Assembly: GCA_965116475.1 (NCBI GenBank)
Contig: OZ220691.1
Span: forward strand, 2,400,001-2,464,000
Direction of reading: 5' to 3'
Source of the DNA: Gemmatimonadota bacterium
GTDB lineage: Bacteria; Gemmatimonadota; Gemmatimonadetes; Palauibacterales; Palauibacteraceae
DNA length: 64,000 bases
Shown: in pieces, positions 10,394 through 45,126 of the stretch
Position numbering within the stretch: the stretch's first letter is position 1
Layout of the letters: every line of letters begins with the position of its first letter
Translations under genes and position numbers: made by a program
Notes under the pieces: generated by a model
What the model saw: the letters and a program-made list of their open reading frames with translations, nothing else
Databases searched by the model: none
What the model was told of the DNA's origin: nothing

Positions 10394-10441
10394 CGCGGCG
10401 TCAGCATCGAGCCCGACCCCAAGGCGTCCCCCACCGGCCGC

Positions 10442-14534: not shown

Positions 14535-16423
14535 GCGGCGGCCGTCGGCTTCTGGAACTGGAGGCGGTGGAGCTGCGCGTAGAGGCCGCCGCTCTCGAGC
14601 AGCGTGTCGTGCGTGCCGGACTCGCTGATGCGTCCGTGGTGGAGCACGAGGATGCGGTCGGCCCCCTGGATGGTGGAGAGCCGGTGGGCGATGACGAGGC
14701 TCGTCCGTCCCTCCATCAGGCGCTCCAGCGCTGCCTGGATCTCCGCCTCGATCTCCGAGTCCACCGAACTCGTCGCCTCGTCGAGCAGCAGGATGGGCGG
14801 GTCCCCCGCGAGCGCGCGGGCGAAGGACACCAGCTGGCGCTCACCGACCGACAGGTTCCCGCCCCGCTCGCTAAGCGGCTCGTCGTACTTCTTCGGCAGC
14901 CGCGCAAGGTGCCGGTCGACCCCGACCTGACGGGCCGCCTCGCGGATCTCGTCCCGTCCCACCGCCCCGCGGTCGAGCGCGATGTTGTCCGCGGCGGAGC
15001 CCGAGAAGAGGTAGACGTCCTGCAGCACGAGGCCCATCCGGTGGCGGAGGTCGGCGAGCCGGAGGTCCCGGATGTCGACCCCGTCGAGCGTGATGCGCCC
15101 GCGCTGCGGCTCGTAGAAGCGCATGAGGAGGCTGAACAGCGTCGTCTTGCCCGCGCCGGTCGCTCCGACGACCGCGAGCCGCTGACCCGGCTCCGCCGTG
15201 AAGCTGATGCCGCGCAGCACCCAGCCGTCGTCCGGCGCGTCCTCGTCGAGCCGCCCCTCCGCCCCTTCCCAGGCCGCGGCGTGGGCCAGGGCGGGCGTCG
15301 TGACCCCCGCCGCGTCCTCCTCCGGCGACAGGTACCGGAACCAGACATCCTCGAACTCGATGCGGCCCTTCACGCGCGCCGGAAGATCCGTCGGATCCTT
15401 GGGGTCCTCGATCCCCGGCGCTTCGTCCAGGAGCCGGAAGATCCGCTCCGAACTCGCCATCGCGCCCTGCAGGATGTTGTACTTCTCCGACAGGTCCTGG
15501 ATGGGGCGGAAGAACCGCCTCGCGTACTGCAGGAAGGCCGCGATGACCCCGATCGTGAGCGTCCCCTCGAGGGCCTGGTTGCCTCCGTACCAGATGATGA
15601 GCGCGAGCGCGACCGACGCGAGCACCTCGACGACGGGAAAGAAGAGCGCGTAGTACGTGATCGAGCGCAGGTGGGCCTCGAGGTGGTCATCGTTGATCTC
15701 GCCGAACCAGCGCGTCGCCGCCCGCTCCTGCCGGAACAACTGCACGACGCGCACCCCCGTGATCCGCTCCTGCAGGAAGGCGTTGATGCGCGCGAGCCGG
15801 ATCCTGATGTCGCGGTACGCCTCGCGCACCTTCTTCCGGAAGAGCCACGCGGCCAGGAACACGAGGGGGAGGACCGCGAACGTCACGAGGGCGAGCCGCC
15901 AGTCCATGACGAGCATGGCGATCATGATGAAGGCGACCGTGAACACGTCCCCGAAGATCGTCACCACGCCGGAGGTGAACATCTCGTTCAGGACCTCGAC
16001 ATCGCTCGTGAGCCGCGTCATCAGGCGTCCGACCGGGTTGCGGTCGAAGTACGCGAGCCGCAGGCGCTGCAGGTGCCGGAAGATCTCCTGCCTCAGGTCG
16101 ACCATCACGTTCTGCCCGATCCACGTGGTCAGGATCGTGCGCCCGTACTCCAGCAGTCCGGAGAGGAGGAGCGAGACGAAGAAGAGGATCGCGAGGGTGC
16201 GGATGGCGCCGAAGTCGCCATCCGGGATCGCGTGGTCGATGACCTCCATCGTCAGCCACGGGCCGATGAGCGCGAGGCCCGAGGCGGCCACGAGCATCAG
16301 CACGGCGAGCGCGACCCGGCCCCGGTACGGTCTCAGGTAGGCGAGCAGACGCTTCATGAGACGGGCGTCGTACGCCTTTCCGAGCGCTTCTTCTTCCTGG
16401 AGGGGACCGTCCGGCGCTTGCAT
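14531..16423 (-). CDS. ABC transporter permease/ATP-binding fusion (MsbA/MdlB-like exporter)
   Basis: N-terminal TMD, GATGAGKTT, LSVGERQL, LLLDEATS, IAHRLSTI. Confidence 0.95.
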   Translation of the reverse strand: MQAPDGPLQEEEALGKAYDARLMKRLLAYLRPYRGRVALAVLMLVAASGLALIGPWLTMEVIDHAIPDGDFGAIRTLAILFFVSLLLSGLLEYGRTILTTWIGQNVMVDLRQEIFRHLQRLRLAYFDRNPVGRLMTRLTSDVEVLNEMFTSGVVTIFGDVFTVAFIMIAMLVMDWRLALVTFAVLPLVFLAAWLFRKKVREAYRDIRIRLARINAFLQERITGVRVVQLFRQERAATRWFGEINDDHLEAHLRSITYYALFFPVVEVLASVALALIIWYGGNQALEGTLTIGVIAAFLQYARRFFRPIQDLSEKYNILQGAMASSERIFRLLDEAPGIEDPKDPTDLPARVKGRIEFEDVWFRYLSPEEDAAGVTTPALAHAAAWEGAEGRLDEDAPDDGWVLRGISFTAEPGQRLAVVGATGAGKTTLFSLLMRFYEPQRGRITLDGVDIRDLRLADLRHRMGLVLQDVYLFSGSAADNIALDRGAVGRDEIREAARQVGVDRHLARLPKKYDEPLSERGGNLSVGERQLVSFARALAGDPPILLLDEATSSVDSEIEAEIQAALERLMEGRTSLVIAHRLSTIQGADRILVLHHGRISESGTHDTLLESGGLYAQLHRLQFQKPTAAA

Positions 16424-16498
16424 GCCCCATAGTACGAACTCGCCGCGCCCGGTCCAATCAGGTTGGCGCGCCCCGTCGCCGCCGGCCATCATGCTTCC

Positions 16499-19453
16499 AT
16501 GAGCGACCGGATCCGGGTCCGAGGCGCCCGGCAGCACAACCTCAAGGGCATCGATGTCGACATCGAGCGCGGGGCCCTCACCGTCCTCACGGGGCCTTCC
16601 GGCTCGGGAAAGTCCAGCCTCGCCTTCGACACGATCTACGCCGAGGGACAGCGGCGGTACATCGAGTCGCTGTCCACCTACGCCAAGCAGTTCCTCGAGC
16701 GCATGCCGAAGCCCGCCGTCGATCTCGTCGAGGGCGTGAGCCCGTCCGTCGCGATCGACCAGAGCAACCGCGTGCAGTCGAGCCGCTCCACCGTCGGCAC
16801 GATCACGGAGGTCTACGACTACCTGAGGCTCCTGTGGGCGCGGGTGGGGACGACCGTGTGTCCGGAGTGCGGGCGTGCCGTCGTGCCGGACACCGTGACG
16901 TCGGCCACCGACGCGCTGCTCGGTGCCGGCGCCGATGCCGGCCCCGAGGCGCGGCTCGCCATCGCCTTCCCCGTCCCCCCCGAGGAGCGCATGGACGGCG
17001 CGAGGGTGGTGCAGAACCTCCGGGCGCGGGGGTACGTCCGCCTCCTCGCCGACGGCCGCGAACTCTACCTGCCGGACATCGATCCGGACATCGATCCGGA
17101 CATCGATCCGGAGGCGGAGGAGGAGAAGGGCGGAGGGGACGACCTGCGCGCGTTGGCGGACGCGGGCGAAGCGCTCGTGATCGTGGACAGGGTCGCCTGC
17201 CGCGCCGAGGATCGCGAACGGATCGCGGATTCGCTCGCCGGCGCCTTCGCCGAGGGAAGAGGCGCCGCCGTCGCGCTCATCTGGCGACGCGGCGCCTCCA
17301 CCCCCGAGCGCCGCGACTTCGAAGAGGCCCATCGCTGCGGGGTCTGCGGCTCCGCGTTTCCGCGGCCCACCCCCCAGTTGTTCAGCTTCAACAGCCCCGC
17401 CGGAGCCTGCGACACCTGCACGGGCTTCGGCGCCGTGCTGGAGTACTCCCCCCAACTCATCGTTCCCGACCCGGCCCGTTCGCTGGACGAGGGGGCCCTC
17501 GATCCGTGGTCGAAGCCCCGCTACCGGCGCGAGCGCACGCGCCTGAGAGCGTTCGCCGCCGCTGCCGGGCTCGACGCGACCCTCCCGTGGGAGGCCCTCC
17601 CCCAGGAAGGCCGCGACGTCCTGTTGCACGGAGGGAGGTACGCGGAGGAACGCTTCCGGGGCGTGATTCCATTCCTCCGCTCGAAGGAGAAAAAGCGGTA
17701 CAAGGCATACATCCGCGTCTTTCTGCGCCAGTATCAGCTTCCCGAGCGGTGTTCCGGCTGCGACGGCCACCGCCTGAAGCCGGAAGCACTGAATGTGCGC
17801 GTCGGGGGGCGGCACATCGCCGAAGTCGCCCGCTGGACGGTGAAGGAGATCTCCGCCTGGCTCGCGGGCGGACTCGATCTCTCCGCCTTTCAGCGTGAGG
17901 TCGCGTCGACCATCCTCCGCGAACTCGAGCATCGGACCTCGTTTCTCGCGGAAGTCGGACTCGGGTACCTGACGCTGGACCGCCAGGCGCGGTCCCTCTC
18001 CGGGGGCGAGATGCAGAGAATTCGCCTCGCCAGCTGTCTCGGGAGCCGACTGGTCAGCACGCTCTACGTCCTCGACGAACCCACGATCGGCCTTCACCCG
18101 CACGACATCGACGCCTTCACCGGCGTCCTCGAGCGGCTCGCGAGCCGCGGGAATACCGTGCTCGTCGTCGAGCACGAGCCCGCGGTGCTGGAACGGGCCG
18201 ACCGCATCGTGGAACTCGGTCCCCGGGCCGGGGAGCAGGGCGGTGAGGTCGTGTTCGAGGGCGGCTGGAGCGACCTCCTCGCGGCGGAGACCGGCACCGG
18301 CCAGGCCCTCGCGCGACGGGCGGCCGCCGCCGGGCAGGGCGGCGCACGGCAGGGCGGTGCGTGGCAGGGCGGCCAACAGTCGGGTGGCGGCTCCCGACTC
18401 GCCCTGCGCGGCGCCCGCCTGCACAACGTACGGGGCGTGGACGTGGCGGTTCCGCTGGGGTCGCTCACGCTGGTCACCGGCGTCTCCGGCTCCGGCAAGT
18501 CGACGCTCATCCGCGGCGTGCTGTACCACGCCCTCGAGCGGGAGATCACGGACCGGTCCTCCGCCAAGCCGCACCTGGGCGAGCCCGCCGGCTCCTGGGA
18601 CCGGCTCGAAGGCGCGGAGCTCCTCGAGGACGTCGTGCTCGTCGACCAGCGGCCGATCGGCCGCACCCCGCGCTCGAACCCCGCGACCTACATCGGGGCC
18701 TTCACCCCGCTGAGGAACGCCTACGCCGCCCTCCCGGAAGCCCGCTCCCGCGGATACGAGCCGGGATATTTCTCCTTCAACCGTCCGGGCGGACGCTGCG
18801 AGCACTGCAAGGGCGCGGGGGAGGAGACGGTGGAGATGGTCTTCCTGGCCGACGTCTCCGTGCCCTGCGAGGCGTGCGGGGGCTCGCGCTACCGTCCGGA
18901 GGTGCTGGAGATCGGGATCCGCGGCCGCTCGATCCGCGACGCCCTCGACATGACCGTGGACGAGGCGATCCGCTTCTTCATCCGGCACGACCGCCTCGGC
19001 GCCCGGCTGTGGCAACTGCAGCGGGTGGGTCTCGGATACCTGCGGCTCGGCCAGCCGGCCACCACGCTCTCCGGCGGCGAGGCGCAGCGCCTCAAGATCG
19101 CCCGGGAACTCGCGCGCCGGGGAGGCGCGGGCCGCAGGCTGTACATCCTCGATGAGCCCACGGTGGGTCTCGGCGTGGCGGAAGTCGGCACGCTCGTCGC
19201 GGTGCTGCGCGAACTCGTGAAGGAAGGGCACGCCGTCGTCGTCGTCGAACACAACCTCGACGTGGTCGCGGAAGCCGACTGGGTCATCGACATGGGGCCC
19301 GGGCCCGCGGAGGACGGCGGCCGCATCGTGGCGGCGGGCCCGCCCACCGTCATCGCCGAGTCCGAAGCCTCGCTCACGGGCGCCTTCCTCCGCGCCCGGG
19401 CGGAGCGGCTGGCCGTCGATGGGGCGGTCGCCGCCGGCGCGGAATCGGCGTGA
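16499..19453 (+). CDS. uvrA: Excinuclease ABC subunit UvrA
   Basis: [31 protein letters not shown], zinc-finger CxxC motifs, two LSGGE signatures. Confidence 0.95.
17072..17112 (+). repeat. In-frame 12-bp tandem repeat (PDID x3) in uvrA
   Basis: ccggacatcgat x3 plus ccgga. Confidence 0.9.
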
Positions 19454-20508
19454 CCCAGGCCGGCGCGCCACGCGTCTCCATCCTTCTGCCGTGCCGGGAC
19501 GCCGAGCCGTTCCTGGGCGCGTGCATCGAGAGCCTCGCCGCCCAGTCCGAGCCGCGTTTCGAGGTGCTCGCGCTCGACGACGGTTCGGTGGACGGCACCG
19601 GGCCGCTGCTGCGGACGTGGGCGGCACGCGACTCCCGCGTCCGCCTCGTCGACCGCGACGGCTCGGGCATCGTCGCGGCGCTGCGCCGGTTGTCGGGCGG
19701 GGCGCGGTCGCCCCTCCTCGCCCGCATGGATGCCGACGACATCGCGCACCCCGGCCGCTTGGCCGCGCAACTCCGCCTCCTCGCCCGATGCCCCGGCATC
19801 GCCGCGTGTGGCACGGGCGTCCGCTACTTCCCGCGGCCCCGGCCCGGCTCGGGGTACCTCCGCTACGAAGGCTGGATCAACGAGCTCACCGAGCCCGCCG
19901 CCGTCGAGCGGGACCTGTTCGTCGAGTGTCCGATCGCCCACCCCACGCTGATGGTGCGGCGCGACGCCTTCGAGGCGGTCGGCGGCTATCGCGACGCCGG
20001 GGGACCGGAGGACTACGACCTCATCCTGCGGCTGTCCGCGGCGGGCCATCTCATGACGAACGTGCCGCGGATCCTCCACGAGTGGCGCCTGGGCCCGCAC
20101 CGGCTGTCCGAGCGGTCGGACCGCTACAGCCCCGACGCGTTCCGGCGCCTCAAGATCGCGCACCTCGCGAACGGCGGCATTCCGGCGGACCGGCCGCTCG
20201 TGATCTGGGGCGCCGGCAAGGTCGGCAAGGCCTTCGCGCGCGGCTGGCTTGAACGCGGGCTCGAACAGGGGGGCTCCGCGACTCGCGCCCGCCCGCTGGA
20301 GGCGTTCGTGGATCTGGACCCCCGCAAGATCGGGCAGAACATCCACGGCGCCGTCGTCCTCCGCCCCGAGGATCTCCCGGCGTTCGCCGCGCCCGCCCGC
20401 CCCTACATGCTCCTCGCGGTGGGCACCCCCGGCGCCCGCCGGGAGATCCGGGAGGCGCTGCAGGCCCTCGGGTTCCGGGAGATCGAGGACTACCGCGCCG
20501 TGGCCTAG
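19450..20508 (+). CDS. Glycosyltransferase family 2
   Basis: VSILLPCRD, DDGSVDGT, RMDADD, PEDYDL; C-terminal Rossmann-like WGAGKVG. Confidence 0.92.
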   Translation: MTQAGAPRVSILLPCRDAEPFLGACIESLAAQSEPRFEVLALDDGSVDGTGPLLRTWAARDSRVRLVDRDGSGIVAALRRLSGGARSPLLARMDADDIAHPGRLAAQLRLLARCPGIAACGTGVRYFPRPRPGSGYLRYEGWINELTEPAAVERDLFVECPIAHPTLMVRRDAFEAVGGYRDAGGPEDYDLILRLSAAGHLMTNVPRILHEWRLGPHRLSERSDRYSPDAFRRLKIAHLANGGIPADRPLVIWGAGKVGKAFARGWLERGLEQGGSATRARPLEAFVDLDPRKIGQNIHGAVVLRPEDLPAFAAPARPYMLLAVGTPGARREIREALQALGFREIEDYRAVA

Positions 20509-22234: not shown

Positions 22235-22327
22235 CCAGGAGATCGCTCGCTTGGTCTAGGGAGTTGGGGCAACAGGTCCCGAACCACACCGTACGCGGAG
22301 CTCCGCCCTGAGTTGGGAGAAGCTGGA

Positions 22328-23404
22328 ATGAGACGTTCGAGTAGCTGCTTCGACTTCCTTGGGTTCGTGAGAACAGTCGGTGCAGTGGCCGCGTTGGCCG
22401 CTGGAGGTGCGGATCTGGTAGGTCAGGAGCCCGACTGCGGCGGGCGAGGGGTGCTCCGGGTGGTGGTGTTCGACCAGTCCGGGTCGGTCCCGATTCCGGG
22501 GGCGACGGTCGTCCTGCGGTGGACCGATGCGGAAAGCGCGCGAAGGCCGGTGCGGGAGGACGCCGGGTCCCAGGGGCAACTTGTCCTCTGCGCCCCTCGC
22601 GACGCCCGGCAGGCCACGGTATGGGCCGAGTTCGGGGACGCGTCGAGCGACGAGGCCGTAGTTCCCATCGTGGCTGGGACCTCGCGAGAGGCGAGGCTCC
22701 TGCTTCATCTGGGCCAGGTACGGACGGGACGCCTGATCGGCGAGGTGCGGGACGCTCTCGCCGACAACCCCGTTGCGGCGGCCGCGGTGTCAGTGCTTGG
22801 GGGGACGGAGGTGGCCGAGACCAATCGTATGGGGCGGTTCATCCTGAGCGGCGTCCCGGTCGGCGTCCAGGAGCTTTCGGTGCGGCATCTGGGCTACGCG
22901 CCCCTTACCCATGAGGTCACGGTATCGCGCGGCATCACAACGGAGGTCGAGGTCGGGCTGGTTCCGGAGCCCGTGGAGATGGCGCCGATCGTGGCTACGG
23001 CGCCGAGATCCCGCCGCTTGGAGATCAAGGGGTTCTACGAGCGGAAATACTGGGGCGAACTCGTCAGCGGGGGCACCTTTCTCACCGCCGCCGACATCGA
23101 GCGCCGCAGACCCGTGCTCATCTCGCACATGATTGCCGACGAGGCGGGGATCCGGTTGGAGTGCGGCCTCAGGGTGTCCAGCTGCAGAGTACTGAACAGG
23201 CGGGGAGCCTCGCGGTTTGTGCCCGGCGGCTGTGAGATGAGCATCTGGGTCGATGGCGTCAACATCGGAAAGGGAGGACCTGATACCGTTGTAAGGCCGG
23301 TCGAGATCGCCGGAGTCGAAATCTACAAGGGACCCGCCTCCCTTCCGGCCGAATTCGCCGGATCCGATTCCGGGTGCGGGGTCGTCGTCATCTGGACGAA
23401 GTAA
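22328..23404 (+). CDS. Secreted carboxypeptidase-regulatory-like domain protein with C-terminal TonB-plug-like domain
   Basis: Signal-like N-terminus, TNRMGRFILSGVPVG-VRHLGY, GFYERK, IAGVEIYKGPASLPAEF-CGVVVIWTK; less GC-biased codons than neighbours. Confidence 0.8.
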   Translation: MRRSSSCFDFLGFVRTVGAVAALAAGGADLVGQEPDCGGRGVLRVVVFDQSGSVPIPGATVVLRWTDAESARRPVREDAGSQGQLVLCAPRDARQATVWAEFGDASSDEAVVPIVAGTSREARLLLHLGQVRTGRLIGEVRDALADNPVAAAAVSVLGGTEVAETNRMGRFILSGVPVGVQELSVRHLGYAPLTHEVTVSRGITTEVEVGLVPEPVEMAPIVATAPRSRRLEIKGFYERKYWGELVSGGTFLTAADIERRRPVLISHMIADEAGIRLECGLRVSSCRVLNRRGASRFVPGGCEMSIWVDGVNIGKGGPDTVVRPVEIAGVEIYKGPASLPAEFAGSDSGCGVVVIWTK

Positions 23405-34785: not shown

Positions 34786-35991
34786 ATGGAACTCGACCGG
34801 ATCGCCCGTCTCGCCGGAGGCGGCGGGGGCAAGGTGCTGCTCTACGTGCTCGACGGGCTGGGCGGGCTGCCCCGCGAGCCCGGGGGGCCGACAGAACTCG
34901 AGGCCGCCCGCACCCCGCACCTCGACGAACTCGCCCGCGCCGGGACGTGCGGTCTCCACGACCCCGTTGCCCCGGGCATCACCCCGGGCAGCGGCCCCGG
35001 CCACCTGGCCCTGTTCGGCTACGACCCCCTCGTGTACGAGACCGGCCGCGGCGTGCTCGAAGCCCTCGGCATCGACTTCCCCCTCCGACCGGGCGACATC
35101 GCCGTGCGGGCCAACTTCTGCACCCTCGACGCCCACGGCCGGGTGGCCGACCGCCGCGCGGGCCGCATCCCGTGCGAGGAAGCCGCCCCCCTGGCCGCCC
35201 GGCTCAACGGCATCGAACTCGACGGCGCCCGCTGCACCGTGCGCCACGTGAAGGAACACCGCTTCGTCCTCGTCCTGCACCCCGACGCCCCCGCGGGCGA
35301 CGCCGTGAACGACACCGACCCCGGCCGGCCCGGCCTGCCGACCAGGGCCCCGGTGGCGCGGAACGCGGCAGCCGAGCCGACCGCGCGGCTCCTCGCGGCG
35401 TGGCTCGAAGCCGCCGCCGAACGGCTCGCCGACCGGACCCAGGCGAACATGGCGCTCCTGCGCGGCGTCTCCAGCCAGCCCGACTGGCCCCGCTTCGGCG
35501 ATGTATTCGGCATGCGGGCCACGGCGGCGGCCGCCTACCCCATGTACCGGGGCGTCGCGCGCCTCGTCGGCATGGACGCGCGCACGGTGCCCGCGGGCGC
35601 CCCCCCGCTCGTCGACGCCCTGAAGGCCCGGTTCGCCGAGCACGATTTCTTCTTCCTCCACTTCAAGCCTCCCGACAAGGCCGGAGAAGACGGCGACTTC
35701 GACCGCAAGGTAGCCGCCATCGAGGAAGCGGACGTCATCGTCCCGGATCTCGTCGATGCGGGCCCCGACGTCATCCTCGTGACCGGCGACCACTCGACCC
35801 CCTCCGTCATGAGCAGCCACAGCTGGCACCCCGTGCCCTTCCTCCTCCACGGCCCCCCGGCCCGCAACGACGCCGCCACCACGTTCGGCGAGACCGCCTG
35901 CCGCGCCGGCGCCCACGGCCGCGTTCGAGGCTGCGACCTCATGCGCCTCGCCACGGCCAGCGCCGGTCGCCTCACGAAGTTCGGAGCCTAG
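34786..35991 (+). CDS. apgM: 2,3-bisphosphoglycerate-independent phosphoglycerate mutase (ApgM type)
   Basis: LDGLGG, TPGSGPGHLALFGYDP, GRGVLEALG, TGDHSTP, HSWHPVP. Confidence 0.93.
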   Translation: MELDRIARLAGGGGGKVLLYVLDGLGGLPREPGGPTELEAARTPHLDELARAGTCGLHDPVAPGITPGSGPGHLALFGYDPLVYETGRGVLEALGIDFPLRPGDIAVRANFCTLDAHGRVADRRAGRIPCEEAAPLAARLNGIELDGARCTVRHVKEHRFVLVLHPDAPAGDAVNDTDPGRPGLPTRAPVARNAAAEPTARLLAAWLEAAAERLADRTQANMALLRGVSSQPDWPRFGDVFGMRATAAAAYPMYRGVARLVGMDARTVPAGAPPLVDALKARFAEHDFFFLHFKPPDKAGEDGDFDRKVAAIEEADVIVPDLVDAGPDVILVTGDHSTPSVMSSHSWHPVPFLLHGPPARNDAATTFGETACRAGAHGRVRGCDLMRLATASAGRLTKFGA

Positions 35992-36146
35992 CCGCCGCGC
36001 CCGAATCCGTACAGCCCACGCGGGTTTTCGGCGATTCCCACGCCCCCATCCGGCCCCACCGCCCATCGAGCCCGATGCAAGTTTGATGCTCGGGCGGGCA
36101 ATTAAGAGTAGGGGGGTGCATCGGAAACGCTCGGAGGGAGTACCGG

Positions 36147-37357
36147 ATGATCAACGTTCTTGCGGGCTCGGAAAACGACGCCGCGCTCATCGCGCAAGCC
36201 GTCGGCAACGCCGCACAGGTCGTGGCGGATGCGGCTCAGTTCACGAACGGCGATGGCCCCGTGGAGTGCCTGATTCTCGGTTGCCGCCATCCCATCCCGG
36301 CGGAGACGATCGAACTCCTGCGGGACATCGAACGGAAGAGGCTGTGGATGCCCCTCATCCTCGTCACGGATCGCGTGCCCGAGGCCGCGCGCCGGCTGAG
36401 CGACGATAAAGCGCCCCTTGCGCTTCAGTTCGGTTCGATTGCCGGAGCCGCAAGGGGCCCGTCGGGGACCGTCTTCGTGCTTGATGCCCAAGCGTCGGAA
36501 CTTCGGGCGTTCACGAGCGGGACGGGCGTGGCAAGTTTCGCGGTCGACACCTTCCAGGTGCTGGGTGGAGCGGGCCTGGGGCCTGGCGAATTCCAGTCGC
36601 CGAGGGCGTTGGCGCTCGGTGCGAACGGTACCGTGGCCGTGTTCGAGTCCATGGGCAGTGTGCACCAGTTCACGAACCGGGCAGGCGTGCTCGAGCACGA
36701 TGGCACCATTCAGCTCCGGATCGATGTCGACGATGCGTGTATTCTGGGTTCGGAACTCGTCGTCGCCGGCAGGGACCTCCAGCGGCCCGGGTCGATACAC
36801 GTATTCACCCTGGAGGGAGAGTGGCTGCGGTCTTTCGGCCACTTCTACGATACGGACAATCACCGCGTGTCGGCCGTGCTCCACCGTTCCAAGGTGGCTT
36901 GCCTGGAAGCATCGCGGCAGATTGTCGTGGCGCCGTGTTTCTGCCGGAACTCAGGAAGTACGATGCACACGGCCGATTGCTCTGGTGGTCCGCCTTGGAC
37001 GGCCTGTCGCCGGTGTACCTGGAGGAGATGCCCAATGGGGCCATTGCGACCGGCACGCCGGAGGACGGATACCACGGGACGGTGGCGGTGCAGGCCGACG
37101 AGAACCTCAACGCGGTGATACTCCAGGTGGCTTTCGTAACGCGGGAACGCCGGCGGAAGGGTGAGGCTCCCGATATTTTGACCTATGTGTTCAAACTGGA
37201 CGAGGGTCACGGTACGCTATTCGAGGGCGATGTCGATACCGTCCGGGATTTGTTTCCCGACGGTGCTCTGTTGTCGGCCCGACTTCCGTTCCCGACCCTG
37301 CGGATGGTTTCGTGGGCCGAGGGCGTGAGTCGGAGAGTCGCCGGGGGTGCGCCGTGA
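36147..37357 (+). pseudogene. Chimeric ORF: receiver-like N-terminus fused to a 6-bladed beta-propeller, frameshift at about 36935
   Basis: CLILG...PLILVT (receiver-like), then GTVFVLDAQ, GGAGLGPGEFQSPR (NHL-like); frames join at VVAP|VFLPELRKYD. Confidence 0.65.
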
Positions 37358-38817
37358 CGCCTGCTGCCTTCATGTCAACGAACCTTATGCGCTCGCGCGC
37401 TCACGGGGTAACGTGGCGCAGGATGTTCATTGCGTTCGCGCTGAGCGTCGCGTGGCCGTCGGGGGCGGCGGGTCAAGAACCGGGACGGGTGATGGGCGTG
37501 GTCCGCGCCGAGGACACCGGCGCGCCCGTGGAGGGGGCTGCGGTACGGCTGGCGGGAGCCGACGTCGTGGTGGCGGAAACCGTCACGGGCTTGGGCGGCG
37601 CCTTTGCCTTCGACGGGATCGCGCCGGGCGAGTATGTGCTCGGCGTGCGGCGCATCGGGTTCGCCGCGTACAGCGTGCCACTGGAGGTGGGGCCTGACGG
37701 GACGGCCCCGCTAGATGTGCGGCTGTCGCTGGACCCGGTTGAGATGGCGCCGCTGGAGGTGGACGTCGAGGGCCGACCGCTCCGCCTGGTCGAGACCGGT
37801 TTCTACGACCGGCTGGAGGAGGGCTGGGGCACGTACTTCGAGCCGGAGTGGATCAGGACCCGAAGCGTGGGAGTCGCACGACTGGCGCACTTCGTGTCGA
37901 ACCTGCAGATGCGGGCCCCCCTGTCCCGGTGTCCCACGGTGCAGGTCTGGTACGACCGGAGACTCATCGGGACAGTCGCTGGCTGGGGAACCAGCCAGCC
38001 GGCGTCGATCAATCCCGGCGGGACGCACCGGTCCGCCGGGGAGTCGCCCGCGCAACTGCTGGACGAACTGTCCGTGACGGATCTGGGCGCCGCTGAACTG
38101 TACCCGACTTCGTCTCCCATCCCGCTCTTTGCGCTCAACACTCACACGGTTCGCTGCGGGGCCATCATCCTGTGGTCCGACTGGATGGCGCAGATAGGGG
38201 GAGAGGTTCCGCAGATCGAAGTGAAGCTCTGCGAGCCGACTGGCGGTTCCGGCGCAGTGACGCTGGACGGGACCATCGAAGACCGGCTCACCGAGGTGCG
38301 GCTGCCGGCGGCCCGCATCCGGGCGTCGTTCGCGCCGGAGGGCGAGGTTGATCCGCCCGAACTCCGCGAGATCGAGGTGCGGTCCGACTCGACCGGCCGC
38401 TTCCGGCTCTGCGACCTCCCGTCGGGAACCGACGTCACGCTCGCGCCCTCGTACGGTCCCCATCCGGGCGAGGTCGCTGTGCTCCGTGCCGAATCCGGTG
38501 AAGCGGCCCGTCTGGTCGTCCCCGTCACGATGCCGGGATCGGTTGCCGGACGGGTCGTGAACGGGAACACGGGGCGGGGGTTCCCGGCCGTCCCCGTCAT
38601 GCTGGTCGGCACAGATGTGCGGGCCGTGACCGATGGTGCAGGCCGCTTCACGATGGAGGACCTGCCCCCGGGCTCGTACCAGGTGCGGGCCGACTGCGGG
38701 GGCTTCGAGTCGCCAACGCCGCGGGTTGCCGTCTCGGAGGCAGGACAGGCCCGGGTCCTCCTCGTCCTCGAGCCCGAAGACCGCTCCGGCCGCGATCTAC
38801 GCCGCTGCGACAACTGA
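37354..38817 (+). CDS. Secreted carboxypeptidase-regulatory-like domain protein (copy 1)
   Basis: Signal peptide ending AAG-Q, G-Y-L-VRRIGF, GFYDRLEEGWG, CGAIILWS, TDGAGRFTMEDLPPGSY; start uncertain. Confidence 0.85.
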   Translation: MTPAAFMSTNLMRSRAHGVTWRRMFIAFALSVAWPSGAAGQEPGRVMGVVRAEDTGAPVEGAAVRLAGADVVVAETVTGLGGAFAFDGIAPGEYVLGVRRIGFAAYSVPLEVGPDGTAPLDVRLSLDPVEMAPLEVDVEGRPLRLVETGFYDRLEEGWGTYFEPEWIRTRSVGVARLAHFVSNLQMRAPLSRCPTVQVWYDRRLIGTVAGWGTSQPASINPGGTHRSAGESPAQLLDELSVTDLGAAELYPTSSPIPLFALNTHTVRCGAIILWSDWMAQIGGEVPQIEVKLCEPTGGSGAVTLDGTIEDRLTEVRLPAARIRASFAPEGEVDPPELREIEVRSDSTGRFRLCDLPSGTDVTLAPSYGPHPGEVAVLRAESGEAARLVVPVTMPGSVAGRVVNGNTGRGFPAVPVMLVGTDVRAVTDGAGRFTMEDLPPGSYQVRADCGGFESPTPRVAVSEAGQARVLLVLEPEDRSGRDLRRCDN

Positions 38818-38823
38818 CACGCC

Positions 38824-38858
38824 GGTCGGGTGGTGCTGAGCGCCTCATCGGAGTGTTC
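38824..38858 (-). repeat. Fragment A of the SPW gene 3' end
   Basis: 30/35 identical to 42057-42091 by manual alignment. Confidence 0.85.
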
Positions 38859-39176
38859 ACAGTTCAGAGCTTGAAGACTCTCCAGATGCCGTTACAGCCC
38901 GAGAGTGACCCTGACCTGCGGCGCGTTGCTGCTCCTGGCGGGCCTCCTCGCTCGTGGGGTGAGGGTGACCGCCCGGATTTGGGAGTTGCGGACGACCGGG
39001 AGGTGGTTGACGTCTCCGCGTCTCTGGAGGCGCTCATCGGGCCCAGCTTGCGAATCGGGAACGGAGTCCGGAACCCACTTCATTCCGGCTCGCGGCGGAT
39101 CTCCCGCCTTCTACACGAGCAGCGAGGTGTGGACTATGACGCCTTCGTACGGGCGCTCGGCGTGGAGCCACGGTAG
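38853..39176 (+). pseudogene. Possible remnant of an unknown gene (107-aa ORF)
   Basis: Start codon lies inside fragment A; stop immediately precedes fragment B; no recognisable family. Confidence 0.4.
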
Positions 39177-39179
39177 GAG

Positions 39180-39213
39180 ACGTTCCCGCGGGAACGTGCG
39201 GGGTCAGGCGGTG
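39180..39213 (-). repeat. Fragment B: 18-bp palindrome plus SPW stop codon region
   Basis: ACGTTCCCGCGGGAACGT..GGGGTCAGGCGGTG matches 42033-42068 (17/18, short indel, 14/14). Confidence 0.9.
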
Positions 39214-39317
39214 GTACTCGCACCGCCCGCCCGCAGGCGTCAGATTTCGATCTGGAACAGGAGAGGAAAGGGAAGTTCCGGGCTACCCGAGAGGGAGGTT
39301 GGACGATCGGAGTTCCG

Positions 39318-40811
39318 GTGGATTCGTCACGCGAGGCCGTCCTGATCGAGCGGACGGTCGGTGCCGTGGCGACGAGTCTCGCAAGGTCGTGCGCTCGCGG
39401 CGTGACGCGGCGCCTGGTGCTCGTGGCGCTCGCGCTGGGCGTCGCGTGGCCGATGGTGGCGGCGGGGCAGGAGCCGGGACGGGTGATGGGCGTGGTCCGC
39501 GCCGAGGACACCGGCGCGCCCGTCGAGGGGGCTGCGGTACGGCTGGCCGGAGGGGACGTCGTGGTGGCGGAAACCGTCACGGGCCTGAGCGGCGCCTTCT
39601 CCTTCGACGGAATCGCGCCGGGCGAGTATGTGCTCGGCGTGCGGCGCATCGGGTTCGCCGCCTACAGCGTGCCGCTGGAGGTGGGGCCCGACCGGCCGGG
39701 CCCGCTCGATGTGCGGCTGTTGCTGGACCCGGTCGAAGTGGCGCCGCTGGAGGTGGACGTCGAGGGTCGGCCGCTCCGCCTCGTCGAGACAGGCTTCTAC
39801 GACCGGCTGGAGGAAGGCTGGGGCACGTACTTCGAGCCCGAGTGGGTCCGAACCCGAAGCGTCGGCTTCACCCGGTTGTCGCACTTCGTGTCGAGCCTGC
39901 AGATGCGGGCCCCCCAGTCCCGCTGTCCCTCTGTACCGGTCTACTACGACCGGGAACTCATCGGCGAAGCCGATGGCTGGGGAACCAGTCGGCCGCGGTC
40001 GCTCAATCCGGCCGGCACGCAACGATCCGCCGTGGAGCCGCCCGCGCAATTCATGGACGAACTGTCCGTGGCGGATCTGGGTGCCGCCGAGGTCTATCCG
40101 ACTTCGTCTCCCATCCCGCTCTTCGCATTCAACGATACCACGATCAGCTGCGGGGCCATCATTCTGTGGTCCGACTGGATGGCGCAGATAGGGGGAGAGG
40201 TTCCGCAGATCGACGTGAAGCTCTGCGAGCCGACTGGCGGTTCCGGCGCAGTGACGCTGGACGGGACGGTCGAAGACCGGCTCACGGAGGTGCGGCTGCC
40301 GGCGGCCCGCATCCGGGCGTCGTTCGCGCCGGCCGACCAGGAGGGGCCGCGCGAACTCCCCGAGATCGAAGTGCGGTCCGACTCGACGGGCCGCTTCCGG
40401 CTCTGCGACCTTCCGTCGGGAACTGGCGTCACACTGGCGCCCTCCTACGGCCCCCATCCGGGCGAGGTCGCCACGCTCCGCGCCGAACCCGGCGCCGCGG
40501 CGCGTCTGATCGTCCCCGTCACCATGCCGGGCTCGGTCGTCGGGCGGGTCGTCAACGGGAACACGGGGCGGGGGTTCCCGGTCGTACCGATCGTTCTGAT
40601 CGGCACTGATGTCCGGGCCGTGACCGATGGTGCCGGCCGCTTCACGATGGAGGATCTGCCCCCGGGCTCGTACCAGGTGCGGGCCGACTGCGGGGGCTTC
40701 GAGTCGCCAACGCCGCGGGTCGTCGTCTCGGAGGCAGGGCAGGCCCGCGTCCTCCTCGTCCTCGAGCCCGAAGACCGCTCCGGCCGCGACCTGCGCCGCT
40801 GCGACAACTGA
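39318..40811 (+). CDS. Secreted carboxypeptidase-regulatory-like domain protein (copy 2)
   Basis: Close paralog of 37354-38817 with the same C-terminus RDLRRCDN; start uncertain. Confidence 0.85.
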   Translation: MDSSREAVLIERTVGAVATSLARSCARGVTRRLVLVALALGVAWPMVAAGQEPGRVMGVVRAEDTGAPVEGAAVRLAGGDVVVAETVTGLSGAFSFDGIAPGEYVLGVRRIGFAAYSVPLEVGPDRPGPLDVRLLLDPVEVAPLEVDVEGRPLRLVETGFYDRLEEGWGTYFEPEWVRTRSVGFTRLSHFVSSLQMRAPQSRCPSVPVYYDRELIGEADGWGTSRPRSLNPAGTQRSAVEPPAQFMDELSVADLGAAEVYPTSSPIPLFAFNDTTISCGAIILWSDWMAQIGGEVPQIDVKLCEPTGGSGAVTLDGTVEDRLTEVRLPAARIRASFAPADQEGPRELPEIEVRSDSTGRFRLCDLPSGTGVTLAPSYGPHPGEVATLRAEPGAAARLIVPVTMPGSVVGRVVNGNTGRGFPVVPIVLIGTDVRAVTDGAGRFTMEDLPPGSYQVRADCGGFESPTPRVVVSEAGQARVLLVLEPEDRSGRDLRRCDN

Positions 40812-40813
40812 CC

Positions 40814-40879
40814 CTCCGCCCATCCCGGTGCCCGTACCCACGGTGGTGACGCCGAAGACGAGGTCGTTGAACAGGGCCT
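40814..40879 (-). repeat. Fragment C of the SPW gene 3' region
   Basis: 57/66 identical to 42100-42165; reads ALFNDLVFGVTTVGTGTGMGG versus AFFNDLMFGVITVGTGAAMGG. Confidence 0.92.
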
Positions 40880-42021
40880 ATCGCCGTCACCGGCTGGCGT
40901 CGCCCAGGCTTCGAACCGCGCTCGCGGCAGTCACGCTGTTCGCCGCCTGCGGCGAGCAGACCGAGTCCGGGTCGCAGCCGCTCCAGCTCGATCCGTATGC
41001 TTCCGTGATCGCGCCGCCGAGCCTGATCGACGAGATCGTGCTGCTGGAGGGTGAAAGGGCCTGCGTCATCGATACCTACTGGTACCGTGTCGTCTGCACC
41101 GATCCGGGCGGTGATTCCTTCAGGTTCGGCAGGGAAGGCGAAGGGCCGGGCGAGTTCACGGACCCGACCGAGGTCCTCCGCGGGCCAGCGGGAATGATCG
41201 GTGTAGTGGACCCGCGATCGAACCGCCTGTCGATGTTCTTGCGGTCCGGTGAGTTTGTGGCTTCCACTCCGGGGCTGCAGGGGATCCCGGGCATCCTGAC
41301 CAGCAGCGGCCCGTCCGCCACGGGCGGGACGATGGCCACAAGCTTTCGGAAGTTCGGTCCGGACAGGCGTTCAGGCTCTTCCACCGCGCAAGCGGAAATC
41401 GATACCGCCACGGGCCGGGTCGTATGGGAGCGGACGTTCCCGGACGAGGCCGATGTGGTGAACTGCTCGACCCCCAGACCCGGATCACCCCGCCGTCAGA
41501 TGGGAACGGGATACGATGACGGGGACGGCGGCTTGGTCTTCGTGACGTGCTACGGGGAGTTCCTGGTTTGGTATGCCGACCGTGACGCGGACGAACCGGG
41601 CGCCATCGTGCGGACCACGTACGTCGAGCGATACCCGACCGACGAAGACGTCGCTTCCGAGCTTCGGTTCCTGAACTCGATTCCATCGGGCGGCTTCCGC
41701 CCGGACGTCGATGAGGAAGACATCCGGGCGCGACCCAAGGCCTGGTACGGCGCGCGCGTGGTGGACGACGAGTGTCGATTCTGGGCGGTGTCGCATTGGA
41801 ATTCGAGCGACGTAACCCCGTCGCTCAGCTACATCGACATGTTCCGGCTCACCGACACAGGCCCCGGGTACGCGCTGACGCTGCAAGTGGCGGACAAGGT
41901 GGTGGGGATGGATGTGCTCGGAAACGCGCTCGCCGTGCTCGTGGAGCGCGAAACCGGTGGCGTAGTCCGCGAGCGCCGCGTGGACTGGTACGACGTGACC
42001 GACGTGGCCCCTCAACGCTGA
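40867..42021 (+). CDS. 6-bladed beta-propeller lipoprotein
   Basis: Lipobox LFAAC, FGREGEGPGEF NHL-like motif; the only candidate starts (GTG/TTG) after the upstream gene fall within fragment C. Confidence 0.8.
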   Translation: MNRAYRRHRLASPRLRTALAAVTLFAACGEQTESGSQPLQLDPYASVIAPPSLIDEIVLLEGERACVIDTYWYRVVCTDPGGDSFRFGREGEGPGEFTDPTEVLRGPAGMIGVVDPRSNRLSMFLRSGEFVASTPGLQGIPGILTSSGPSATGGTMATSFRKFGPDRRSGSSTAQAEIDTATGRVVWERTFPDEADVVNCSTPRPGSPRRQMGTGYDDGDGGLVFVTCYGEFLVWYADRDADEPGAIVRTTYVERYPTDEDVASELRFLNSIPSGGFRPDVDEEDIRARPKAWYGARVVDDECRFWAVSHWNSSDVTPSLSYIDMFRLTDTGPGYALTLQVADKVVGMDVLGNALAVLVERETGGVVRERRVDWYDVTDVAPQR

Positions 42022-42058
42022 CAAGGCGGGCCACGTTCCCGCGGAAACGTCCAGGGGG

Positions 42059-42400
42059 TCAGGCGGTGCTGGGGGCCTCGTCGGAGTGTTCGATTCCGGC
42101 TCCGCCCATCGCGGCGCCGGTGCCCACGGTGATGACGCCGAACATGAGGTCGTTGAAGAAGGCCTGCGCGTTGGCGAGATACCCGTGGATGAAGGGCGAC
42201 AGCATGCTGTAGGCGCCGAGGGCGATGAGTCCCCAGCCGCTGATCCGGTTGATGCCGAGGTTGAAGGTGATGGTGACGACGAGGATGGAACCGCCGAGCA
42301 CCACGCTGTGCCACCACAGGAAACCGAACGGGTATCCCCAGATGAACGGGGCGCCCAGGAACCAGAGTCCCAGCGCGAGACCGACCCAGCGTGACGCCAT
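42059..42400 (-). CDS. SPW-repeat membrane protein
   Basis: Two repeats LGLWFLGAPFIWGY / LGAYSMLSPFIHGY; GAGAGG RBS. Confidence 0.88.
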   Translation of the reverse strand: MASRWVGLALGLWFLGAPFIWGYPFGFLWWHSVVLGGSILVVTITFNLGINRISGWGLIALGAYSMLSPFIHGYLANAQAFFNDLMFGVITVGTGAAMGGAGIEHSDEAPSTA

Positions 42401-42479
42401 CGAACCTCTCTCGGAAGAAACCGGATGAACCGTCGAACCGGCGCCTATGATGCGCCCCGGCAGGGGCAAAGGCAACGTC

Positions 42480-44780
42480 CTACAGGCGGGCGCGGCGGAG
42501 GCGGTTCGCGTTCGTGACGACGGAGATCGAACTCAGCGCCATGGCGGCCTCCGCGAGGACGGGGTGGAGAAGGCCGAGGAAGGCGACGGGGATCGCGACG
42601 ACGTTGTAGACGTAGGCCCAGAAGAGGTTTTCGCGGATCTTGCGGAAGGTGGCGCGGGAGAGCTTCGTCGCGCGGACCACGGAGCGCAGATCTCCCTGCA
42701 CGAGGGTGATGTCGGCGGCTTCGATCGCGATGTCGGTGCCGGTCCCCACGGCGATGCCGACGTCGGCCGCCTTGAGGGCGGGGGCGTCGTTGATCCCGTC
42801 GCCGACGAAGGCCACGGTGTGGCCGTCGGCGCGGAGTTGCCGCACGGCCTCGACCTTGTCGGCGGGGAGCAGCCCGGCCCGGAAGTCGTCGATGCCGAGG
42901 TGCTCGGCGACGGCGGCCGCCACGGCTTCATGATCGCCGGTGAGCATCACGGTCCGGAAGCCGCGGCGGCTCAGCTCCAGGAGGGTCTCCCGGGCGTCTT
43001 CCTTCACCGGGTCGGCGATCGCGATCGCGCCGAGCAGCCGCCCGCCGGCGGACACCCAGGCGACCGTGCGCGCGTGGTCGCCGAACCGCCGCTCGACCCG
43101 GGCGATGTCCTCCTCCGGGATGCCCTCCTCGCGCAGCAGCCGCGCGCTGCCCACGGAGACCCGCTGGCCATCGACCTCGCCGACGATGCCCATCCCGACG
43201 CGGGCTTCCACGCCGCCCGCCCGGGAGAAGGGGATGCCGCGCCCGCGCGCCTCCTCGACGACGGCGCGGGCGAGCGGATGCTCCGAGGCGTCCTCCACCG
43301 CGGCTGCGAGTGCGAGCACGCGCCCCTCGGCGGCTTCCTCCGTCGCGAAGATCTCGACCACGCGGGGGGCGCCGCGGGTCAGGGTGCCGGTCTTGTCGAA
43401 GACGAGCGTGTCCGCCCGGTCCAGCGTCTGCACGGCGGCCCCGTCCCGGATGAGGACGCCGCGGGTCGCCCCGAGGCCGGTCCCGACCATGAGCGCGGTG
43501 GGCGTGGCGAGCCCGAGCGCGCAGGGGCAGGCGATGACGAGCACCGCGACCGCGGCGTAGAGCGCGAGGGACAGGCGGCCCAGTTCCGGGTTCACCCACG
43601 GGATGAACCCCGACGCCCAGCGCGCGGCCTCCGTGAAGACGCCGGGCACGACGAACCAGCCCGCGAAGGCCGCCAGCGCGACGACGAGGATGACGGGCAC
43701 GAAGATGGCGGTCACCCGGTCCGCGAACTCCTGGATCGGGACCTTGCTCGCCTGCGCCTCCTCCACGAGGCGAATGACGTTGGACAGGAAGGTGTCCTCG
43801 CCCACACCCGTCGCCCGCACCCGAAGCGCGCCGGAGTGATTGACGGTCGAACCGAGGACGGAGGACCCCGGTTCCTTCTCGACCGGAATCGACTCGCCCG
43901 TCGCGAGCGACTCATCGACCGCGCTCCGCCCCTCAAGGACGACGCCGTCCGTGGGGATCTTCTCGCCCGGGCGGATGATCATCACATCGCCCACCGCGAC
44001 GTCGCGGGTCGGGATCTCGAGTTCGGTGCCCTCCCGCTCCACGCGCGCCGTGGGCGCTTCGAGCGAAAGCAGCGCCTGGATCGCCGACGAGGAGCGGCCG
44101 CGCGCCTTCGCCTCCACGTAGCGGCCCGTGAGGTGGATGGCGGCGATCATCGCGCCTACCGGCGCGAAGTTCATGATCATCGGGGCGAACCCGAGGACGT
44201 GCAGGACGGCCCACGCCCCCGTGAGCACGGAGACGCCGGCCCCGAGCGCGATGAGAACGTCCATGTTCGGCGTGCGGCCCCGCGCCGAACGCCACGCGCT
44301 GCGCAGCGTCGCCCCCCCCGGCCCGATGAGGACGGCGGCGCCGAGCACGGTGACGCCGAGGTCGAAGACGAGCGGCGACGGCCAGCGCACCCCGGCGAAC
44401 ATCTCCGGCAGCATCCACACCATGGCCGGGACGGTGAGCGCCCACGCGGTCCACATCGTTTTCCACGCCTCGCGCGAGCGGGCTTCCGCCTCCGCAAGGC
44501 GCGAGCGCTCCGCCTCTCCCCGGTCCACGTCGGCGATGGGCTCGATCTCGTAGCCGGCCCCCTCGACGGCCGCGGCGAGTTCCTCGAAACCCACGTCCCG
44601 GGTGAGCGTCAGCGTCGCGGACTCGGCGGGGAGGCTCACCGCAGCCTCCACGCCGTCGACCGCGTTGAGGCTCCGCTCCACGGCGCCGACGCAGGCCGAA
44701 CAGTGCATGCCGGCGATCCGATAGGTCTTCCTTGCCGCGGTCGGCGTGGGGGCCGAGGCGTCCATGGTCATCCTTGTCAT
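42480..44780 (-). CDS. copA: Copper-translocating P1B-type ATPase
   Basis: GMHCSAC HMA domain, TGES, CPC, DKTGT, SEHP, GDGIND, YN, MALSS. Confidence 0.95.
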   Translation of the reverse strand: MTRMTMDASAPTPTAARKTYRIAGMHCSACVGAVERSLNAVDGVEAAVSLPAESATLTLTRDVGFEELAAAVEGAGYEIEPIADVDRGEAERSRLAEAEARSREAWKTMWTAWALTVPAMVWMLPEMFAGVRWPSPLVFDLGVTVLGAAVLIGPGGATLRSAWRSARGRTPNMDVLIALGAGVSVLTGAWAVLHVLGFAPMIMNFAPVGAMIAAIHLTGRYVEAKARGRSSSAIQALLSLEAPTARVEREGTELEIPTRDVAVGDVMIIRPGEKIPTDGVVLEGRSAVDESLATGESIPVEKEPGSSVLGSTVNHSGALRVRATGVGEDTFLSNVIRLVEEAQASKVPIQEFADRVTAIFVPVILVVALAAFAGWFVVPGVFTEAARWASGFIPWVNPELGRLSLALYAAVAVLVIACPCALGLATPTALMVGTGLGATRGVLIRDGAAVQTLDRADTLVFDKTGTLTRGAPRVVEIFATEEAAEGRVLALAAAVEDASEHPLARAVVEEARGRGIPFSRAGGVEARVGMGIVGEVDGQRVSVGSARLLREEGIPEEDIARVERRFGDHARTVAWVSAGGRLLGAIAIADPVKEDARETLLELSRRGFRTVMLTGDHEAVAAAVAEHLGIDDFRAGLLPADKVEAVRQLRADGHTVAFVGDGINDAPALKAADVGIAVGTGTDIAIEAADITLVQGDLRSVVRATKLSRATFRKIRENLFWAYVYNVVAIPVAFLGLLHPVLAEAAMALSSISVVTNANRLRRARL

Positions 44781-44790
44781 CCTTCCCGTA

Positions 44791-45126
44791 TTACCTGTCG
44801 GCGAAGCGCGTGAAGAGATCCGCGATCTCCGCGCGCACCCGCGCGGCGTCGTCACCGCCTTCCTCGATGGCATGGGTGGCGCAGCGCTCGAGGTGGTTCA
44901 GCAGGAGTTCCTTCTCGGCCGCGCGCAGCGCGGAGTGAACGGCGGCGAACTGCTGCAGGATGTCCGGGCAGTACCGTTCATCCTCCACCATGCGGGCGAT
45001 GCCCCCGACCTGTCCCCGGATACGGGCCAGCCGACGGCCGAGGTCCTGTTTCGTCCCATCCGCGATCCCCATCGCATGCGGCCCCGCGTCGCTCACCGCC
45101 ATTCCCTCCGCGCTTACGTCCATCAT
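44791..45126 (-). CDS. csoR: CsoR family metal-sensing repressor
   Basis: RLARIRGQVGGIARMVEDERYCPDILQQ...HLERC (Cys-His-Cys); start uncertain. Confidence 0.93.
   Translation of the reverse strand: MMDVSAEGMAVSDAGPHAMGIADGTKQDLGRRLARIRGQVGGIARMVEDERYCPDILQQFAAVHSALRAAEKELLLNHLERCATHAIEEGGDDAARVRAEIADLFTRFADR

Follow-up and report, generated by a model that had tools for sequence, protein, structure and literature searches.

Introduction

Integrons carry the integrase IntI, have an attC site in each cassette and a fixed crossover point, and grow at one end into arrays whose cassettes mostly share one orientation and have short flanks. Genomic islands can accrete in tandem at the 3' end of a tRNA or protein gene; there, an integrase is carried and the extent of the repeat is constant. 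Many chromosomal hotspots of gene gain contain no mobile-element genes, and how they grow has mostly been inferred. Here, we describe a hotspot in a stretch of 64,000 nt (called the window throughout) from a Gemmatimonadota bacterium (assembly GCA_965116475.1, contig OZ220691.1, positions 2,400,001-2,464,000). By its homologues the organism belongs to Candidatus Palauibacter of the Gemmatimonadota, an uncultured, partly sponge-associated, marine genus. The site lies between the gene of an SPW-repeat membrane protein (SPW) and the convergent phosphoglycerate mutase gene apgM. It is probably a one-directional site of gene accretion, which grows through serial recombination anchored in SPW and has no recombinase gene that we could find nearby.

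Orphan modules of contact-dependent growth inhibition (CDI) loci are grouped with the displacement arrays of Rhs genes. For Rhs, a 'C-terminal displacement' was described that leaves core fragments of variable length, and a circular intermediate with one crossover was proposed (Jackson et al. 2009, PMC2935791). For the orphan immunity arrays of Vibrio cholerae's T6SS (type VI secretion system), homology-facilitated illegitimate recombination (HFIR) was proposed, and the authors compared the arrays with integrons (Kirchberger et al. 2017, PMC5361080). In the minimal mobile elements of Neisseria, two conserved genes enclose differing whole-gene cassettes without mobility genes, transformation and homologous recombination being the presumed means of transfer (PMC3082526). 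The hallmark of HFIR is a microhomology of 3-10 bp at the illegitimate joint together with a coupled deletion in the recipient; in E. coli, using a circle with shortened homology, 56 of 60 integrants had a duplication of 109-950 bp of homology and 4 of 60 arose by HFIR (PMC3240628). The present locus was not found in the papers searched on Palauibacter or on the SPW repeat, judging by titles and the openings of abstracts, which is no proof that it is unpublished.

Results

Five ORFs lie on the plus strand between apgM and SPW in the window; in the direction of SPW they are a chimeric ORF, o501a, o107, o497b and o464 (Table 1). ORF stops in the interval are located at 38817, 39176, 40811 and 42021. 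A preliminary description of the locus had placed pieces of the SPW 3' end directly behind the first three of them. We could confirm the stops as well as the pieces, hereafter stubs B, A+ and C, which begin 2-6 nt past a stop codon and rank ahead of every other non-self match to 42000-42500 across the window (blastn). By rough arithmetic, with five stops spread over 6 kb, the chance of three matches that each start no more than 7 nt from a stop is about 2e-7.

Related loci were collected by a scan with the SPW alignment, taking one genome per species, which gave 51 loci (numbered with L). Together with the window they amount to 850,817 nt, and this total was scanned for SPW-end pieces and palindromes. 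SPW and the 3' end of apgM are both present, in convergent orientation, in 42 of the 51 loci, and the gene order is ATPase, SPW and then apgM. The Palauibacter clade was defined by SPW genes at least 92% identical and comprises 18 loci. L034 and L036 are two distinct SPW-apgM loci of one metagenome-assembled genome (contigs of CAYMQZ01), which suggests a strain mixture in the bin or a duplicated locus. The start and length of SPW in the window were set by the homologues, which likewise have 113 aa, and the gene is 98% identical at the nucleotide level to those of L001 and L002.

Two of the three pieces occur as conserved blocks in other species and are hence not chance matches. The o501 tail and stub B form a block of 77 nt with 90% identity to the intact SPW/o501 junction of L002, and a second block of 47 nt is 87% identical to L020. 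In stub B, which remains joined to the 3' end of o501a, the SPW stop codon has mutated from TGA to CGA. The same stub is found in L003 and L013, and three derived changes common to the window and these two loci point to one origin. The piece at 39180-39213 had also been taken for an SPW 3' end. It does match 42033-42068 (89% over 36 nt with one gap, blastn E 0.002), but most of it is an 18-nt perfect palindrome, and the SPW coding part, stub A+, is only about 12 nt long. Its junction recurs in L002 (11504-11558) and L013 (17719-17775). Stub C begins 2 nt past the stop of o497b and is open as an SPW-like peptide, with the translation ALFNDLVFGVTTVGTGTGMGG. It falls into the allele class of L003-L007. 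That the scars would resemble foreign SPW alleles more than the resident one held, by a small margin, for stub C, to which 9 of 17 other alleles are closer (61/66 to L004, L007 and L012 vs 57/66 to the resident SPW); for stub B the comparison was uninformative. A counterpart of stub C was sought in L006, where the junction between an o464-family gene and o501 has no SPW piece. No further copy of the SPW end was detected outside the SPW-apgM interval in the 850,817 nt, and no palindrome either, by which we rejected dispersed repeats as an explanation.

Each stub runs on into its old neighbour just as the intact SPW gene does in other species. The proposal that the cassettes were once direct neighbours of SPW was thus borne out by living species. 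The segment 37389-38858 of the window (o501a, spacer and stub B) is colinear with L005 and L008, in which o501 is the sole cargo and its stop lies 26 nt from the intact SPW stop. Likewise, 39129-39213 (the tail of o107, the palindrome and the 12-nt stub) is colinear with L009, L014, L017, L018 and L020; in the first three the intact SPW with its palindrome is bordered by a gene of the lipoA family, in L018 and L020 by the tail of such a gene. L017 contains lipoA alone. L002 shows the L017-type state with o501 inserted at SPW nt 331, so that the 12-nt stub and the palindrome are left on lipoA, and the inner pair of the window has the converse order, with lipoA inserted at nt 310 before o501a. 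One-, two- and multi-cassette states therefore all survive as intermediates in sister species, and both orders of addition are seen. Later losses are also evident: L018 keeps only an internal o501 fragment of 389 nt, o501 of L002 is without its middle, and L003 keeps o501 tails.

The size and the content of the gap vary widely. In 26 of 28 outgroup loci the stops of SPW and apgM are 19-164 nt apart, the exceptions being L043 (8.3 kb) and L045 (1.8 kb). Inserted at the site in L043 (10343-18618) is a cluster with molybdopterin oxidoreductase, 4Fe-4S, NrfD and cytochrome c, and in L045 (10304-12147) LemA with an M48 peptidase; neither palindrome nor stubs were found in these insertions. Within the clade, L001 has a gap of 69 nt, 13 other loci have gaps of 476-9047 nt, the window has one of 6067 nt and L013 exceeds 9997 nt; in L004 and L012 the contig ends before the interval does. 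Gene content in the 18 clade loci varies with the species, as the preliminary description had expected of relatives. The short gap of the outgroups vs the variable cargo of the clade indicates that the hotspot opened in the Palauibacter clade. The 69-nt spacer of the empty site of L001 matches nothing else and gives no support to calling that site either ancestral or secondary.

The array probably grows at its SPW end, as follows from stubs that derive from SPW only, a shared apgM side and a variable SPW side. Besides the window, 3 of 16 other arrays have SPW-coding stubs (L002, L003 and L013, the last with four), and none of all these arrays has an apgM-coding one. Short hits of the apgM 3' end turned out to stem from 45 nt of array DNA within the query, which match an o501 fragment in L018, and not from apgM. 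The 24-75 nt after apgM are common to most clade loci, and five loci (window, L003, L006, L016 and L020) have an AraC-type gene on the apgM side. On the other side, in each of the 17 other clade loci the homology to the window reaches no further than the SPW stop or the palindrome's far edge, and the SPW-proximal first cassette differs almost everywhere. The cassettes of the window are all co-oriented, and L004, L006, L007 and L013 have cargo of opposite orientation next to SPW. In L006, SPW is directly followed by a co-oriented ankyrin-repeat gene (10359-11294) and then by a PadR regulator.

The SPW repeats differ in their left ends: stub C begins at nt 236, stub B at nt 310 wherever it occurs (window, L003 and L013) and an independent L013 stub at nt 312, and left ends are also found at nt 331 (window, L002 and L013) and nt 337 (L013). 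Other left ends coincide with the edge of the palindrome (L003 12354, L013 18875), a further boundary falls at +7, and one SPW-proximal joint falls within the palindrome, which is halved at the junction with the ankyrin-repeat gene of L006. The SPW-derived repeats are 6 to at least 66 nt long. Such variable left ends fit recombination at a border of homology rather than at a single att site.

The palindrome directly follows SPW in 13 of 18 clade loci, regardless of the next cargo. Twenty copies with up to 3 mismatches were counted in the 850,817 nt, all of them between SPW and apgM or just after SPW, and six internal cassette borders have one. The same search gave no copy in the outgroups or at the empty site of L001. 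The core of the palindrome shows stronger conservation than the SPW codons next to it, and L009 and L010 have a symmetric variant with both outer bases altered. We considered a strong RNA terminator and rejected it, as both copies on both strands fold no better than shuffled sequences (z -0.8 to +1.3). Rfam returned no match at E up to 1 for 35500-43000, and hence no attC-like or other known structured element.

The absence of an integrase or transposase, which had been noted for the window, holds in a domain search: Pfam gave no such domain in 48 of the 52 ORF calls of the window, with four real calls outside the search and two further calls being spurious overlaps of o464, nor in 52 array ORFs from 15 loci. 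There is also no tRNA or tmRNA gene in the window that could serve as a target.

Table 1. Borders, cassettes, SPW remnants and palindromes of the SPW-apgM interval in the window
Feature	Position	Strand	Evidence and remarks
apgM, cofactor-independent phosphoglycerate mutase	34786-35991	+	Pfam PhosphMutase 2e-45, Metalloenzyme; conserved left border of the hotspot
Chimeric ORF	36147-37118	+	beta-propeller-lipoprotein-like piece (36573-36986) behind the first ~120 aa of an AraC-type regulator, whose HTH half is missing
o501a, secreted, CarboxypepD_reg at both ends	37312-38817	+	Pfam CarboxypepD_reg 1e-33; older copy
Stub B	38824-38858	-	SPW nt 310-342; 30/35 to 42057-42091; blastn E 0.025 for the 27-nt core
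o107, frameshifted and internally deleted lipoA-family remnant	38853-39176	+	blastp, tblastn
Palindrome, internal copy, ACGTTCCCGCGGGAACGT	39180-39197	.	18-nt perfect, 0 mismatches
Stub A+	39198-39213	-	last ~12 nt of SPW (39198-39209) with the stop codon, joined to the o497b upstream region
o497b, second CarboxypepD_reg protein	39318-40811	+	Pfam
Stub C	40814-40879	-	SPW nt 236-301; 57/66 to 42100-42165; blastn E 3e-11
o464, 6-bladed beta-propeller lipoprotein (DUF5128/NHL-like)	40864-42021	+	ORF, lipobox; newest, SPW-proximal cassette
Palindrome, copy just past the SPW stop codon	42033-42050	.	1 mismatch
SPW-repeat membrane protein gene, 113 aa	42059-42400	-	Pfam SPW 2e-11; conserved right border, putative recombination anchor
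Copper-type P1B ATPase	42480-44873	-	Pfam E1-E2_ATPase, HMA, Hydrolase; directly upstream of SPW in most loci

The five cargo ORFs had been described as mostly encoding secreted proteins. Their number stands, but o107 is a remnant and the first ORF is a chimera. Homologues of the latter in L003, L006 and L020 align by their first 85-145 aa only (tblastn), and the lipoA-like match inside it spans 36573-36986 (E 9e-4). Pfam found no helix-turn-helix domain in the chimera itself and HTH_18 in the three homologues. An ORF in another frame (36737-37357) overlaps it and may be the remainder of this decayed gene. The remnant o107 matches only residues 1-92 and 303-368 of its L013 homologue; full members of the lipoA family have 362-369 aa (L002, L009, L013 and L017), and L013 18875-20067 is a 1.2-kb full version of the o107 region.

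Between o501a and 39387-40818 the identity is 88.5% across a gap-free 1432 nt, and the homology stops at the stop codon. In a tree of 39 o501-family proteins, o501a and o497b fall into one clade (96/96) but are not sisters, as o497b pairs with P0020, a protein of another genome (96/84 support). The block 39129-40813 is common to L013 (85%) and L002 (81%). The o464 protein is 64-71% identical to homologues in L006, L009, L010 and L014, and its Atlas features score 0.95 to DUF5128 clusters. Its possible starts GTG 40843/40846 and TTG 40864 fall within stub C. The first possible starts of o464 (40843-40879), of lipoB in L003 and L013 (L003 11575-11580) and of o107 (38853-38858) all lie in stubs, which suggests that the antisense strand of the SPW end supplies the 5' end of the next cassette.

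Third-position G+C is lower in the array ORFs, at 0.71-0.87, than in the flanks, at 0.86-0.93 (apgM 0.93, ATPase 0.93, SPW 0.86). Across the arrays the cargo comprises CarboxypepD_reg, beta-propeller lipoprotein, AraC, PadR, two-component, ankyrin and decarboxylase genes, and most of the lipoprotein families are distantly paralogous to each other. Toxin or immunity domains were not found by Pfam in the cargo of the window and the array ORFs.

Discussion

Among the described systems, the locus resembles displacement arrays. As in the Rhs arrays, an intact conserved gene is followed by displaced units, each starting with a conserved fragment of variable length (stubs of 6-66 nt in the window, L002, L003 and L013). 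Moreover, no local recombinase was found, and a circle with a short conserved fragment could shunt the old end downstream in the same manner. The displaced Rhs pieces are, in contrast, alternative 3' ends of one toxin ORF with immunity genes. In the T6SS arrays, successive horizontal additions beside a conserved anchor push older genes back, and plain replacement by homologous recombination takes place at the same locus as well (PMC5361080); both features resemble the present locus. The T6SS anchor, however, is an upstream gene of the same orientation, and selection acts on effector/immunity specificity, whereas SPW is convergent, its own 3' end supplies the scars and the cargo has no relation to it. 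Unlike in Rhs, CDI and T6SS arrays, the 3' end of SPW stays constant and the cargo is independent, convergent and non-toxin. The displacement logic is known from Rhs and T6SS loci, and the SPW locus differs by ordinary, convergent genes: the logic of toxin loci would also build arrays of ordinary secreted-protein genes.

Two flanks in 42 of the 51 loci, with cargo that differs in the 18 clade loci, correspond descriptively to a minimal mobile element. The flanks are 84-98% identical between species, and incorporation there may have been homologous. Minimal mobile elements are described as replacing cassettes between the flanks, whereas addition at SPW is one-sided and leaves stubs that record the order. 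The comparison with integrons, made in the preliminary description, holds for the behaviour, that is probable growth at one end, mostly one orientation, short flanks and older cassettes pushed back. It does not extend to the machinery, as neither IntI nor attC was found, the crossover point is not fixed and the junction is the 3' end of a host gene; the only recurrent element is the 18-nt perfect palindrome. In the accretion of genomic islands the target gene is likewise restored by incoming DNA, and partial 3'-end copies mark the borders of successive insertions. The SPW locus differs by having no integrase that we found, no tRNA gene in the window and repeats of 6 to at least 66 nt.

From this anatomy we infer the recombination pathway and the import of DNA. 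Incoming DNA would consist of a cargo gene or small block with a complete SPW 3' end and the palindrome, and the donor was probably another Palauibacter lineage. On one side it would recombine homologously in SPW or in the ATPase gene, which extends the homology anchor beyond SPW; on the other side it would be joined inside or just past the last ~110 nt of the resident SPW. This would displace the resident end inward and leave it as a stub on its former neighbour, while a fresh, whole SPW gene faces the new cargo. With repetition, the newest genes would come to lie beside SPW and the oldest beside apgM. Convergent stops are only 4-26 nt apart, and an additive event that spares the old cargo would therefore have to cut in the spacer or in SPW, by which stubs would form. 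New types of junction would be made by illegitimate joining, which would account for the varying breakpoints. A cassette and its stub, once formed, could spread by ordinary homologous recombination, either through a single crossover of a circle or through a double crossover that uses the stub as short homology, and internal deletions would then erode the older cargo. The block of o497b, palindrome and lipoA that is common to L002 and L013 may have arrived as one piece.

Homology to the relatives runs through SPW and stops at variable points, with unrelated sequence on the other side, as in a junction pair of the HFIR type. The events at the SPW locus are additive rather than deleting. HFIR of linear DNA and a single crossover of a circle with a short SPW piece would yield the same product; in the E. 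coli experiment the crossover route was much the commoner of the two (56 vs 4 of 60 clones, PMC3240628). Genes for ComEA-like (62384-63079) and PilB-like (63064-64000) proteins are present in the window, as had been pointed out, and may indicate a competent host.

Several observations weigh against serial recombination anchored in SPW. Neither a donor for any step nor recombination itself has been observed, and all genomes compared are metagenome-assembled. Growth on the SPW side only is explained by argument alone, namely by the higher identity between species of SPW (95-98%) than of apgM (84-94%). Stub C is a poor fit: its junction is unique to the window, with no counterpart in 17 other clade loci, and its preference for other alleles rests on a margin of 4 nt. 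It is also without the last 41 nt of SPW (nt 302-342) and without the spacer, so that an extra deletion of 50-70 nt or a complex joint is needed. Stubs C (nt 236-301) and B (nt 310-342) are almost complementary halves of one SPW end, for which reason the block of o497b, palindrome and lipoA might have entered an older, longer stub and not the live SPW gene. The breakpoints cluster at SPW nt 301-312, and stub B, which has one origin, meets lipoA in the window and the unrelated lipoB in L003 and L013 at one and the same nucleotide; neither is predicted by random illegitimate joining. Finally, the 16-nt palindrome core is conserved and locus-specific, and could point to a dedicated protein. Taken together, the anomaly of stub C, the clustering, the two halves and the specificity of the palindrome leave some room for a dedicated unlinked factor.

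Such a factor, a recombinase or nuclease encoded elsewhere, would recognise the palindrome or the SPW end as a dedicated acceptor site and insert cassettes, in a manner truly like an integron or an accreting island; alternatively, a palindrome-binding protein that causes breaks would drive the capture. We regard this as rather improbable. The restriction of all 20 palindromes to this locus, their position after SPW and at internal borders, their absence from the empty site and the outgroups, the conserved core with its symmetric variant, the junctions exactly at or inside the palindrome (L003 12354, L013 18875, L006) and the clustered breakpoints all speak for an acceptor site. A site-specific recombinase would, however, give one boundary, and several are seen (nt 236, 310, 331, 337 and +7). 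No recombinase gene was found in the window or the arrays scanned, the SPW-adjacent cassettes of L002, L004 and L007 lack the palindrome, and without an Rfam match no curated attC-type or other structured element was found; the palindrome could equally be a 3' element of SPW that travels with the gene. If a dedicated acceptor did exist, it would constitute a new system of cassette acquisition in Gemmatimonadota, in which the 3' end of a host gene acts as both attI and attC.

The array could also have arisen in situ, by unequal sister exchange that duplicates segments from the SPW 3' end to upstream of a cargo gene, after which the copies diverge and decay without any foreign DNA. This we consider unlikely, although duplication of SPW nt 310-342, spacer, o501, palindrome and lipoA gives exactly the junction of lipoA 5' end, stub B and o501a that is seen in the window, and the ungapped identity of the two o501 paralogues and the distant paralogy of most lipoprotein families would agree with it. 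The second lipoA that should then lie upstream of o501a is absent, and only a 27%-identical propeller piece is found there. Moreover, o501a and o497b are not closest relatives, the genes flanking each stub are not paralogous (o464/o497b, o497b/lipoA, lipoA/o501a), stub C and the resident SPW are of different allele classes, and the cargo sets differ between close species. An assembly artefact, in which strain haplotypes with different cargo were joined at a shared SPW end, is very improbable. The window does come from a metagenome-derived genome, and stub C with its junction occurs only there; the B and A+ junctions, however, recur in independent assemblies of other species and studies (L002, L003, L013), the stubs are diverged copies (86-89%) rather than identical repeats that mislead an assembler, and the o501a and o497b proteins are each recorded on two contigs.

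Under serial recombination anchored in SPW, the leftovers of this gene are a readable record of the order of events, the side of growth and the breakpoints. The junctions also offer concrete cases in which HFIR and single-crossover models can be tested.

The window contains further genes away from the array. Of an ORF of 1698 aa (14531-19627), only the C-terminal third shows ABC transmembrane and ATPase domains; the N-terminal ~1100 aa gave no Pfam match at E up to 1e-5. A gene for a D12-class adenine DNA methyltransferase is located at 11808-12923, and a shorter CarboxypepD_reg protein is encoded outside the array at 22313-23404.

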